This document shows positions 4,381 to 57,949 of a stretch of 64,000 nucleotides of DNA, piece after piece (the first letter of the stretch is position 1; every line of letters begins with the position of its first letter). The notes below the pieces were generated by a model. That model was not told where the DNA came from. It did not search any database and was given only the letters and a program-made list of their open reading frames with translations. Position numbers and translations under genes: made by a program. The DNA comes from Escherichia coli. GTDB lineage: Bacteria; Pseudomonadota; Gammaproteobacteria; Enterobacterales; Enterobacteriaceae. The DNA is taken from the NCBI RefSeq assembly GCF_003991155.1, contig NZ_CP031293.1, one strand, 5' to 3'.

Positions 4381-5019
4381 ATGCCCGGGCGCTTTGAACT
4401 AAAACCAACCCTGGAGAAAGTCTGGCACGCGCCGGACAATTTTCGCTTCATGGACCCGCTGCCGCCGATGCATCGTCGGGGGATCATTATTGCCGCCATT
4501 GTATTGGTAGTCGGATTTCTGCTTCCATCTGATGATACGCCCAACGCGCCAGTGGTGACGCGTGAAGCGCAGTTAGATATTCAGTCGCAATCACAACCAC
4601 CGACAGAAGAACAGCTGCGGGCGCAATTAGTCACGCCACAAAATGATCCTGATCAGGTGGCTCCGGTCGCTCCAGAACCAATACAGGAAGGCCAGCCAGA
4701 AGAGCAGCCGCAAACCACCCATACGCAACCATTCCAGCCAGATAGCGGAATTGATAATCAATGGCGCTCCTATCGTGTCGAACCCGGTAAAACGATGGCG
4801 CAGCTGTTCCGCGACCACGGACTGCCCGCTACCGATGTCTATGCCATGGCGCAGGTAGAAGGCGCGGGTAAGCCGCTGAGTAATTTGCAAAACGGGCAGA
4901 TGGTGAAAATCCGCCAGAACGCCAGCGGCGTGGTGACGGGCTTAACCATTGATACGGGGAATAATCAACAGGTCCTGTTTACCCGCCAGCCGGATGGCAG
5001 TTTTATTCGTGCGCGGTAG
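4381..5019 (+). CDS. ytfB: Cell division protein YtfB (OapA/LysM-like C-terminal domain)
   Basis: ORF 4345..5019; start set at [23 protein letters not shown] to give 212 aa; Pro/Gln-rich linker then C-terminal OapA-like domain. Confidence 0.8.
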
Positions 5020-5650
5020 ATGAAGGGTCAACCAAAAGCCAGCTAAGGATTGTCTCTTTGATGACCTTACGTCTGGCTTCCAGTGCCTGGGGTGAAACCA
5101 TACTGATGTGATAAACCAGGCCAAGCGTATGCTGGTTGATCAAATAATATCCCCCAAGCGCAGCAATATTAATATTCACCTGCAATGGGTCGATATCTGG
5201 CTTAAAAATATTGTGTTTCTTCCCTTCATCCAATAAGGATTCCATTAACTGCAAGTGCGCATGGTTAATTTCTAAAAGACGCTGTGACTTTGCATAATGC
5301 ACACCCTTACTTTGATTTTCACTATGCACAATTTTTAAAAACCAGGGATTAGAAATATAATAATCCCATGTAAAATCGATTATTTTCTCAATGGCTTTCT
5401 GTGGCGGAAGATCTGAGAAATCAAGGGCCTTTTCTTTTTGTCGAATATCGTTCCAGGTATATTCCAGTACTTCGATAAATAAATTTTCTTTATTACCAAA
5501 GTGGTGATAAACCGTCTGTTTACTGCACCCTGCTGCCTTGACAATATTATCGACTCTGGCCCCTTCGTAACCATATTCGGCAAATTCATTAACCGCGCAT
5601 AACAGCAGCTTTTCTTTCAGGCTCTGTACGTTGCTGGTATCAAGATACAT
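5003..5650 (-). CDS. TetR/AcrR-family transcriptional regulator, divergent from the catabolic operon
   Basis: N-terminal HTH signature ([28 protein letters not shown]) typical of TetR; start set at [11 protein letters not shown] (215 aa); AT-rich coding sequence; 3' end overlaps ytfB by 17 bp (convergent). Possibly the intact counterpart of the K-12 ytfA fragment (from memory, unverified). Confidence 0.8.
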
Positions 5651-55311: not shown

Positions 55312-55660
55312 GGTTTTGTAGCCGGATAGTCTCATCCGGCTCACCAACAAAACAGATAGCGCAGGGAAAACTGCCACAGCCAATAGAAGAGCATTATTGA
55401 AATAACAAAATATTGCCAAAGAGAGTGCTGTTTCTTCCAAATAACAGCATAAATATATGGGATGAATAATGGTAAGGTCATTATAATACCAACTGGGCGA
55501 ATATCATCATTCTCAAGATATGTCATAACATCACAAACATTATTAATTCCTCTACCGTCGATAAACCACTCTTTGTCTTGAACAGATAAAAAATCTATCC
55601 AAAATATGCTTATAACAAACCAGATAAGGTTAAGGGAAAATGATTTCCAGTTCATCATAG
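55240..55660. repeat. Segmental duplication copy A (mscM 3' end + terminator hairpin + yjeO)
   Basis: DNA-level similarity to 57440..57852 read directly (e.g. acggtaaacaaacggggagaacgctgacgtctgcggg versus acggtaagcaaacggggtgaacgctgacctctgcggc; shared aaggttttgtagc.ggat.gtctcatccggc hairpin). Boundaries approximate. Confidence 0.6.
55341..55658 (-). CDS. yjeO: Small inner membrane protein, YjeN/YjeO paralog family (copy adjacent to mscM)
   Basis: 105-aa ORF with 2-3 TM segments; paralogous to the ORF at 57538..57852 (conserved DKEW, YLENDD, IMTLPLF, YWLWQF, LRY.FC blocks); start overlaps the upstream 237-aa gene (ATGA). yjeO versus yjeN assignment is from K-12 gene order (memory). Confidence 0.7.
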   Translation of the reverse strand: MMNWKSFSLNLIWFVISIFWIDFLSVQDKEWFIDGRGINNVCDVMTYLENDDIRPVGIIMTLPLFIPYIYAVIWKKQHSLWQYFVISIMLFYWLWQFSLRYLFCW

Positions 55661-56368
55661 ATTATTCATTATTTTCATTAAAGCAGTTTTCTTTTCAAGA
55701 ATACGTCGACCATATTCACTGTATTCTCTCTGATGGGATCCTTTCGGTGCTGCAATGGAGTCTATAATATCTTGTTTATTTCTTTCAATACCACGGTTGT
55801 ATCGGGAGCCGACTACAATTAACTGCTCATCCGTTAAATTAGTGGTGTCACCTATTTCCGGATAGTCATAATGTATAAGGTCTCGTAAATGAAATGCTAC
55901 CACTCTAATGTTGAAGCGGTCATTTAGTAAGCACTGGGAAAGTTGGAACTGCTCAAAGGATGACAAAAGATCTGGATGTATCCCTATAGTCCTGGCTGCA
56001 ACGCCTAACTGTATTGCGACAGAACCGACTGAAGTAGAGTTTGAGTAGGTATTGCCTCCTCTCTTTGAAACGGCCTCTAGGATTATTTTTAATTGCAGCA
56101 CCCCCACTGGTTTAAATCTTTCTGGCATTCCGCCAACCTCAGCAGCCGCAACGCCCGCAAGTAATAATAACGGGATTTGCGCCTCTTTGGCATATTGCCA
56201 CAACATATCACGGTGATAAATCAACCATGATGTTTTATATAACCATAAGTGTGCAGTCCCCGTGCTGAATGTCCAATTAGTCGGAAGAAAACGCCATCGA
56301 AAATAATCAATGCCATTCCATTTAGGAAAGCCTAATTCATCAACTTCGCAAAAAATAAGATTATTCAT
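55655..56368 (-). CDS. Hypothetical protein, 237 aa, tentative lysozyme-like (GH23/SLT-like) motifs; no signal peptide
   Basis: Intact ORF with AT-rich composition; ordered motifs AAAEVGG ... GSVAIQLG ... NIRVVAFHL ... VGSRYNRG resemble the E-S / G-L-M-Q / A-Y-N-x-G blocks of lytic transglycosylases (manual inspection only); translationally coupled to yjeO. Confidence 0.55.
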   Translation of the reverse strand: MNNLIFCEVDELGFPKWNGIDYFRWRFLPTNWTFSTGTAHLWLYKTSWLIYHRDMLWQYAKEAQIPLLLLAGVAAAEVGGMPERFKPVGVLQLKIILEAVSKRGGNTYSNSTSVGSVAIQLGVAARTIGIHPDLLSSFEQFQLSQCLLNDRFNIRVVAFHLRDLIHYDYPEIGDTTNLTDEQLIVVGSRYNRGIERNKQDIIDSIAAPKGSHQREYSEYGRRILEKKTALMKIMNNL

Positions 56369-56510
56369 TTAAAGTCCCTTATTAAAATCATTCCCAGAAT
56401 GAAGAATAGTACTATCATCAGAAAAACTGATTTGTGATGGGACAGACAAAAAATATAAAAAAGGGTTCGACTTAAGATAATCAAGATAAAACATATATAC
56501 CCAATAAACC

Positions 56511-56939
56511 TCAAGATGCGGGTGTGAGCACCTGAAAGTGATCGTTAATTCGGGATGTCAGAGAGTCCGCTATATCCGGCAGCGTCTGGTTAAAAAAGAC
56601 AGAAAAACGGGATACATTATATTCATGAATGGTTTTATATTCGCAGATTAGCGGTGACGTCAGTGCTTTCAGATTCAGCGCCCCCATGATATTCAGGCGT
56701 GTGCGGCAGCCTGTTGTTTTTACTGCTTTTTTCTGGCCTTTACGTATCCAGCCATAGCTGATTTTAGTGGCCTGAGTCGGATGGACTCCATCAATAAAAA
56801 GAACCGGTTCATCACCCACAGTTATTTTCAGTTCCTCATAATATTCAATGAATTGCCTTTGTTTCTCTTCACTGAATTTATGGGGGACGCCTGACGGTTT
56901 TTTGTAGGTGAAACCATTACGATGCAGCCACTTATTCAT
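56511..56939 (-). pseudogene. IS630-family transposase fragment (C-terminal part)
   Basis: 142-aa ORF MNKWLHRNGFTYKKPSGVPHKFSEEKQRQFIEYYEEL, separated by a frameshift or gap from the N-terminal fragment. Confidence 0.6.
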
Positions 56940-57031
56940 CCCCGGAATGCTGAAAATGATGTTCCATGTCCGGGTGATAAACGCAATAACATCGCGGGTA
57001 TGGTGAAATAAATTATCGGATAACTGGCTGA

Positions 57032-57328
57032 TTAAAAGGCCGTTTGTTCAGCACTGAGTTTGCTGTCTGAGCCGCCGTTTTCGGGCTTCAGTTTTCCTTT
57101 ATTCAGGAATTCGCTGATATGGTGATCAATCGTTGTCTGATGCAAGCGTAAAGCCTGAGCAATCATGGCAGAACTCCAGCCTTCGGAAACCAGAAGAATG
57201 GCTTTAATACGATCTCTGACTCGCCCGTCACGACTGGAATCATGAAGGCGTTCAAGTTCAGCTTTTTGTTGCTCAGTAATGAATATTTTCATGTTGGACA
57301 GCATGATCTTCTGTTGCTGAAAAATCAA
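57032..57328 (-). pseudogene. IS630-family transposase fragment (N-terminal HTH part)
   Basis: 98-aa ORF with HTH region; no contiguous reading frame with the downstream fragment. Confidence 0.6.
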
Positions 57329-57439: not shown

Positions 57440-57852
57440 TCAGAACGGTAAGCAAACGGGGTGAACGCTGACCTCTGCGGCTAAAGCGCGCCAGGACGGC
57501 GGTATATAAGGTTTTGTAGCAGGATGGTCTCATCCGGCTACAAACAAAACTGATAGCGCAGAAAAAACTGCCACAGCCAGTAGCCGAAAATCACAAGCGC
57601 GGTGGCATACATAAACCAGCCGCGTTTTTTTCGCCACAAAGCGAACCAGAGAAAAGGGAAAAAGAGCGGTAACGTCATTATCACACCGACATCGCGGGTA
57701 TCATCATTTTCCAGATACTCCAGCACATGGCAGATATTTTTAACCCCACCTTCATCAATCATCCACTCTTTGTCCAGCGTGGAAGTGATGACTATCTAGG
57801 GGATCGCTACAACAAACCAGATGCAGCATAAGACAAACGTGCGCGCACTCAT
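57440..57852. repeat. Segmental duplication copy B (fossil of mscM 3' end + hairpin + yjeN)
   Basis: See copy A; copy B carries about 60 bp homologous to the last codons of mscM although no mscM gene is adjacent. Boundaries approximate. Confidence 0.6.
57538..57852 (-). pseudogene. yjeN: YjeN/YjeO-family small membrane protein with in-frame TAG at codon 19 (possible pseudogene or 74-aa N-truncated product)
   Basis: Reading from ATG at 57852 gives MSARTFVLCCIWFVVAIP-stop(TAG, 57796..57798)-IVITSTLDKEWMIDEGG...; the stop aligns with a Trp in the paralog at 55341..55658; ORF track reports only the 74-aa downstream frame 57538..57762. Confidence 0.5.
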
Positions 57853-57949
57853 AAGATAACCCGTAGTTTAATTTCGCTATAGCGCATACGAAATCCCACT
57901 AATTCCCTGTCATTGCGCCCTATCGTCAGGCAGACGATAGGGCATCGGG

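Follow-up and report, generated by a model that had tools for sequence, protein, structure and literature searches.

The subject of this study is a 237-aa open reading frame (ORF) at positions 55655..56368 (minus strand) of a 64,000-nucleotide stretch of Escherichia coli DNA (contig NZ_CP031293.1, assembly GCF_003991155.1), which in its entirety we call the window. On the evidence of its sequence, its predicted structure and the genes around it, the encoded protein (27.1 kDa, isoelectric point 8.5; henceforth the effector) is probably a Tge-like peptidoglycan glycosidase delivered by a type VI secretion system (T6SS), with the DUF2645 (YjeO-family) protein encoded directly downstream (55341..55658, minus strand; 105 aa with three hydrophobic helices) as its predicted cognate immunity protein, and with yjeO and ygiZ of K-12 as orphan immunity genes. 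T6SS effectors that cleave the glycan of peptidoglycan and are paired with immunity proteins are well known (Tse3/Tsi3; the Tge families). An earlier sequence-only reading of the window had described an AT-rich ORF whose stop codon overlaps the start of the next gene, and both observations hold: the effector gene has a GC content of 40.3% and its partner gene one of 33.6%, compared with a window mean of 51.5% and with 55.5% in mscM, and the TGA stop of the former and the ATG of the latter share an ATGA overlap. A Shine-Dalgarno-like AAGGGA, read directly from the sequence, lies 6 nt before the effector ATG (56375..56380, minus strand).

Standard domain searches say very little about the effector. 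It has no Pfam match even at E <= 10, nor has any of 27 close homologs; single-sequence searches of Pfam, NCBIfam, PADLOC and the PDB returned nothing useful, and a profile of the close family found only chance matches in the PDB. The sole match obtained with the single sequence was PHROG 11932 (E 9e-25), a group to which no function is assigned. Relatives are nevertheless numerous: close homologs number 110, in Enterobacterales and Advenella, and the family comprises 270 representatives at E <= 1e-3 in a library of 1.8 billion proteins. When the diverse alignment (A3) served as the profile for a search of 5.8 billion proteins, close relatives filled the output and no census of fusions was gained.

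The case for a lysozyme-like enzyme comes from predicted structure and from conservation. The predicted structure of the effector shows an all-alpha lysozyme-like fold with a substrate cleft, and the comparison values place it near Tse3/Tge1, the T6SS muramidase effector of Pseudomonas aeruginosa (12.1), and near the lytic transglycosylases Slt (12.1), MltC (11.9), MltE (11.3) and Slt70 (10.8), followed by g-type lysozyme (9.3). Foldseek returned these same proteins, at weak scores. The four motifs that had been read by hand in the sequence are all present and prove to be the most conserved positions of the family. Across 41 diverse sequences (23-65% identical to the effector) E77, G80, S113, Q120, Y190 and G193 are invariant, and in the close family N153, A158, H160 and R189-G193 are invariant as well. 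E77, the candidate catalytic residue, is likewise invariant in 27 close sequences and in 65 long homologs; it sits at the C-terminal end of a hydrophobic helix and is followed by Val rather than by the Ser usual in family 1 of GH23. The motifs S113-x-G115-x4-Q120 and Y190-N191-x-G193, of the G-L-M-Q and A-Y-N-x-G type, are invariant or nearly so, with non-canonical spacing. A profile of the 41 diverse members, when compared with the PDB, had Tse3 as its best match, at a marginal E of 0.018; the alignment puts E77 on the Glu of a 'LAEQ' segment of Tse3 and also aligns the T-S-x-G and F-N-I..A motifs. Going by the predicted structure, the effector is a divergent member of the lysozyme-like/GH23 fold that current profile libraries miss, and the glycan cleavage predicted for it may be either hydrolytic or of the lytic transglycosylase type. 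A weak Pfam match on the long homologs, Ntox3, was considered as the effector domain and rejected, being a different domain in those proteins; Ntox3 is an all-beta domain of PVC/extracellular contractile injection system (eCIS) toxins (Zhang et al. 2012, PMC3482391).

The second line of evidence is the association with DUF2645. We examined 48 loci, one per species, drawn from a set of genomes of 100,044 species with alignment A1 rather than the diverse alignment, and identified partners with a local hidden Markov model. In 47 of the 48 loci a DUF2645-like ORF lies immediately 3' of the effector gene, within a few bases of its stop codon and often overlapping it, and the lone exception is a distant homolog from Bacillota. 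The pairing holds in Enterobacterales, Variovorax, Advenella and Methyloglobulus. The window's own partner is named 'YjeO family protein' in RefSeq, no NCBIfam model matches it, and the partners in other genera carry PF10840. At nine loci (L015, L043, L046, L052, L054, L056, L058, L059 and L060) an intact DUF2645 gene stands beside a frameshifted or truncated effector gene, and these are intermediate stages towards the orphan state found in K-12.

The third line of evidence concerns delivery. A gene for Hcp is directly adjacent to the pair in 17 of the 48 loci, and the adjacency recurs in Dickeya (where hcp is followed after 10 nt by the effector gene and then by DUF2645), in Pectobacterium and on a Serratia plasmid. 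The Hcp proteins encoded beside the effector all belong to one subfamily, are all 159 aa long and share at least 50% mutual identity. In distant homologs the effector domain is almost always C-terminal, and the N-terminal partners found among the 65 long homologs include an eCIS core (8), PAAR (2-3), DUF4280 (2), a teneurin/Rhs YD shell (1) and WXG100 (1), together with peptidoglycan-binding domains. Relatives in AFDB are annotated as PAAR, RHS, eCIS and WXG100 proteins. Such C-terminal fusions to PAAR, Rhs, eCIS and WXG100 carriers are the signature of a polymorphic-toxin domain. Two single neighbourhoods may be recorded here. In Methyloglobulus morosus (L051 2183-8412) the effector and its DUF2645 gene belong to an array of T6SS cargo genes: they come after genes for a nuclease toxin (Tox-PAAR-like + Tox-GHH2), a tyrosine transposase of the REP-associated type, a Rap1a immunity protein and the amidase effector Tae4, and before one for a TIGR02270-family protein. 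In Yersinia aldovae (L029 3163-7628) the pair adjoins P2-like baseplate genes (gpW/gpJ-like) and a HigB/HigA-like pair, a setting that may explain the PHROG 11932 match despite the negative search of phage genomes discussed below.

The fourth line of evidence comes from E. coli itself, in which the module has a paralog. At the ygiZ locus the order is mdaB-hcp-effector-ygiZ-qseC (strain PN43, L062 5489-7020), where ygiZ encodes a DUF2645 protein and the effector has 236 aa, 80 of 245 positions identical to the effector of the window and all catalytic motifs kept. Of 5426 complete E. coli genomes, 1261 have this hcp-effector-ygiZ module in full and 4598 have ygiZ, so that ygiZ stands alone in about 3300 further genomes, strains derived from K-12 included. 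A near-universal immunity gene accompanied by an effector in a minority of strains is the classic orphan-immunity pattern, and it is on these counts that ygiZ and yjeO of K-12 look, from their sequences and distribution, like orphan immunity genes. K-12-type yjeO was found by megablast in 3029 genomes, and about 880 genomes match only the yjeO portion of a K-12 yjeN-yjeO query, from which we conclude that loss of yjeN is common. The sequence-only reading had proposed that YjeN and YjeO are both partners of an enzyme that K-12 has lost. For YjeO this proposal stands, and it extends to YgiZ; for YjeN it fails. YjeN is a soluble protein of 104 aa, restricted to Escherichia and Salmonella and without a recognisable domain; Pfam gives no match for it and it resembles neither YjeO nor the 237-aa effector, which rules it out both as an effector remnant and as a YjeO paralog. 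The K-12 genes yjeN and yjeO (L012 4394-5019) also overlap by ATGA, even though YjeN is unrelated to the effector.

Sequence features of the partner fit a membrane-bound antidote. Its hydrophobic helices span approximately residues 7-25, 56-74 and 80-98, with a K-K-Q-H turn between the second and the third, and the loop between the first two (residues 26-55) is acidic (isoelectric point 4.1). By the positive-inside rule the N-terminus would lie inside, and the loop and the C-terminus in the periplasm. Eight residues are conserved across 41 partners (E30, C42, D51, D52, P67, W93, F97 and C104), and the two cysteines, C42 and C104, would both face the periplasm, where a disulfide between them is possible. 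When the partner is compared with K-12 YjeO, the loop is the best conserved part (22 of 30 residues identical), the helices reaching 36-58%. We also co-folded effector and partner as a single chain, joined by a 30-residue Gly/Ser linker, with a paired alignment of 26 loci. The model has a predicted template modelling score (pTM) of 0.83 and a predicted local distance difference test (pLDDT) of 84-95 over the partner, these two scores being the whole of its output. For residues 81-110 of the effector, which adjoin the catalytic helix, pLDDT climbs from about 62-67 in the effector alone to 78-87 in the co-fold. The result is compatible with a complex of effector and partner and lends weak support to it.

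The mechanism that we propose on this basis is as follows. The effector, which carries no signal peptide, would be synthesised in the cytoplasm and would probably be loaded into the lumen of the specific 159-aa Hcp subtype and fired by a T6SS into the periplasm of neighbouring Gram-negative cells. Once there, the enzyme would cut the wall's glycan strands from the periplasm, E77 serving as acid catalyst. The next gene, which is coupled to that of the effector in translation, would supply the cognate DUF2645 immunity protein, a three-helix protein of the inner membrane with its N-terminus in and its C-terminus out, whose acidic periplasmic loop, probably stapled by a C42-C104 disulfide, would block the basic enzyme in sister cells. 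That the effector has no signal peptide had been remarked upon from the sequence alone, and a hydropathy scan agrees: neither a signal peptide nor a transmembrane segment is present, and the maximum 19-residue hydropathy is only 1.54, in the buried catalytic helix from residue 63 onward. A wider proposition, which we consider evenly balanced, is that DUF2645 (YjeO, YgiZ) constitutes an unrecognised class of polytopic inner-membrane immunity proteins that act at the outer face of the cytoplasmic membrane against Hcp-borne lysozyme-like effectors, the two orphan genes of K-12 providing standing protection against effectors that are still present in 23% (ygiZ locus) and 0.8% (yjeO locus) of strains. 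As a bolder corollary, an antidote embedded in the membrane may mean that the enzyme acts on a membrane-proximal substrate (nascent or lipid-linked glycan) and not on the mature sacculus.

Several observations weigh against the interpretation of the pair as a T6SS effector with its immunity protein. The effector matches neither Pfam SLT nor any other Pfam family, only one of the 65 distant long homologs matches SLT (PF01464) at E <= 1e-3, and the sequence link to Tse3 is the marginal one given above. The co-fold yields pTM and pLDDT only, and for this one pair. The immunity proteins known for Tge effectors are periplasmic, either soluble or lipoproteins, rather than polytopic membrane proteins. 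No hcp, vgrG or PAAR gene accompanies the pair in the window, nor in those other Enterobacteriaceae where it occupies the epmA-mscM slot. Finally, strain CREC-544, which carries an identical module, has, at the two places examined, no hcp-ygiZ locus and no T6SS island at aspV, so that a delivery system in this E. coli lineage is not established. In that genome the gap between qseC and mdaB measures 109 nt and holds neither ygiZ nor hcp (L064 25515-27555), and the tRNA-Asp gene aspV is directly followed by yafV (L066 38688-39633).

These last points bear most strongly on a rival explanation that shares much of our own. The family may indeed consist of T6SS effectors and immunity proteins, while the module in the window is a stranded passenger, acquired along with IS630 and lacking a compatible Hcp or T6SS, which would confer at most immunity via its DUF2645 protein. 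We regard this as possible but rather unlikely. It would agree with the lack of an adjacent hcp, with the findings in CREC-544, with the disruption of one E. coli copy by IS1 and with the nine other species in which the effector has decayed beside an intact immunity gene. Set against it are the intact ORF, with all invariant residues and a good Shine-Dalgarno sequence, in 43 of 44 carrier genomes, the fact that the negative evidence on T6SS in carriers covers two sites of CREC-544 only, and the many Enterobacteriaceae in which this slot, likewise without hcp, still holds an intact pair. It has to be said that the E. coli copies are near-identical, and thus that their intactness says little about selection, which tempers our own interpretation too.

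The other explanations fare less well. The effector could be a toxin that leaves the cell by another route, such as an extracellular contractile injection system, a tailocin or a bacteriocin-like release by lysis, with DUF2645 still as the immunity protein. The eCIS core found in 8 of the 65 long homologs and the WXG100 domain in one imply that several delivery systems draw on this domain, and baseplate genes adjoin the pair in Yersinia aldovae, but the stand-alone form of about 235 aa found in Enterobacterales associates with hcp and not with eCIS genes, and the effector has no receptor-binding or translocation domain, which makes such a route improbable. It is more doubtful still that the effector is an endogenous lytic transglycosylase for remodelling of the cell wall, with the membrane protein as its regulator or anchor. 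Such a role would suit a GH23-like fold and a partner that is a conserved inner-membrane protein in the core genome of K-12; yet an enzyme without an export signal cannot reach its own periplasm, and the patchy and mobile distribution, the AT-rich DNA, the frequent decay of the effector and the fusions to PAAR, Rhs and eCIS trafficking domains all speak for a different function. Of the two layouts that the sequence-only reading had offered, effector/immunity holds and phage endolysin/holin can scarcely be credited: a signal-less lysozyme-like enzyme followed by a small multi-helix membrane protein, the PHROG 11932 match and the P2-like baseplate genes near the Yersinia aldovae pair recall a lysis module, but tblastn found no homolog of the effector in 50,697 phage genomes, the inspected loci, set in the chromosome among housekeeping genes or beside hcp, include no lysis cassette, most E. 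coli retain the membrane partner by itself, and the enzyme-first order with strict coupling is that of effector and immunity genes.

The survey of the 5426 complete genomes found the effector gene in 44, always on the chromosome, always at this locus and with at least 99% identity, and megablast finds the window's partner gene in the same 44 genomes only. The single split copy is that of strain ECOD1 (NZ_CM129827.1, 4411275-4412765), interrupted by an IS1 insertion. A sensitive blastn search of the 5426 genomes revealed no diverged copy or remnant of the effector gene in other E. coli. As the sequence-only reading had said, the yjeM-mscM interval of K-12 has no counterpart of the gene and holds only yjeN and yjeO. 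That reading had also taken the downstream gene to be yjeO itself, which is correct as to family (DUF2645) and wrong as to allele: the window's partner is 55/105 identical (52%) to K-12 YjeO, and the K-12-type yjeO sits upstream as a resident pseudogene (57538..57852, minus strand), recognised by translation and by blastn and alignment with K-12. A stop near codon 19 interrupts it, and only the last 74 codons are annotated, as 'YjeO family protein'.

The surroundings of the pair point to horizontal acquisition, as had been suspected, and more precisely to acquisition of a whole module. The decayed IS630 element named as a neighbour in the sequence-only reading is a frameshifted transposase pseudogene directly upstream of the effector gene (56511..57304, minus strand), in two ORF fragments (56511..56939 and 57032..57328), and the acquired module is bounded by it on the left; at the identical locus of CREC-544 it bears the RefSeq/PGAP label 'IS630 family transposase, frameshifted'. 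Between this remnant and the yjeO pseudogene lies a duplicated yjeO-mscM junction (57457..57537, minus strand) that includes about 50 nt of the mscM 3' end. By blastn, positions 4664-5100 of the K-12 locus (L012) match 57893-57457 of the window at 87% identity, and the same comparison of the K-12 interval with the window shows a 273-bp deletion in yjeN relative to K-12, leaving its last ~45 nt (about 57849..57893, minus strand). The functional copy of mscM resembles that of E. coli all the way to its stop codon. The duplicated junction looks like a recombination scar from the arrival of the module, and the junction copy and the E. coli-like end of mscM together show that the IS630 element, the 237-aa gene and its own DUF2645 gene arrived as one module. 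The nearest relatives of the effector are 89-91% identical, a Citrobacter protein among them, and the AT-rich pair probably came from a Citrobacter-like donor, beside an IS630 element, into a slot that already held yjeO. A very hydrophobic ORF of 49 aa with a TTG start (56365-56514, minus strand), whose stop overlaps the effector ATG as ATGA, is probably spurious, being conserved nowhere beyond this E. coli lineage.

Compared with known systems, the pair has clear relatives and clear differences. Identity to Tse3/Tge1 of the Tse3-Tsi3 pair (P. aeruginosa H1-T6SS), Tge2 and Tge3 is 12-15%, and the effector has 237 aa against the 408 aa of Tse3; the partner is a three-helix integral membrane protein and not a periplasmic soluble protein or lipoprotein like Tsi3 and the Tgi proteins, shows no homology to known Tgi, and the effector is linked, unlike Tse3, to a particular orphan Hcp subtype. 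From family 1 of GH23 (Slt70, MltC, MltE and MltF; PF01464) the effector differs in lacking an SLT match, a signal peptide and a lipobox, in having V-G-G after the Glu instead of Ser, in an extra conserved N-terminal stretch of about 35 residues and a C-terminal R-x-Y-S-x-Y-G-R helix pair, and in its use as a toxin module. The Hcp-linked cargo islands (the Pantoea hcp island, PMC9796082; Tae4/Tai4) are similar in having a bicistron beside hcp, an effector that is replaced or decayed and an immunity gene that is kept; their effector and immunity families are others, and the orphans yjeO and ygiZ lie in housekeeping slots far from T6SS clusters. Three published systems were considered and set aside: hcp2B of avian pathogenic E. 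coli delivers XmtU/XmtV instead (PMC5874247), the 'lysozyme-like effector' of Pantoea is a VgrG glucosaminidase with an LprI-type immunity protein (PMC9796082), and the lysozyme-like effector of Salmonella pathogenicity island 21 has 812 aa and an immunity protein with a signal peptide (PMC13304343). In the open-access literature of PubMed Central and in bioRxiv, with subscription literature outside this scope, we found no mention of DUF2645, of PF10840 or of the relevant accessions, no function assigned to that family and no T6SS link for ygiZ or yjeO. The effector family, its family of polytopic membrane immunity proteins and the role assigned here to yjeO and ygiZ thus appear to be new.

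The principle of T6SS glycosidase effectors is itself not new. If our interpretation is correct, it would reveal a widespread effector family that has no Pfam model and is 'hypothetical' in RefSeq, found across Enterobacterales and some beta- and gammaproteobacteria, with a toxin domain that is reused by PAAR, Rhs, eCIS and type VII secretion-type carriers. It would also provide a first function for DUF2645, as immunity proteins with an unusual polytopic-membrane architecture, and would explain two long-uncharacterised genes of K-12, yjeO and ygiZ, as orphan immunity genes in housekeeping slots. The population pattern in E. coli, where the immunity gene is near-universal and the effector with hcp is confined to a minority of strains, would then amount to a natural experiment and makes this a directly testable hypothesis.

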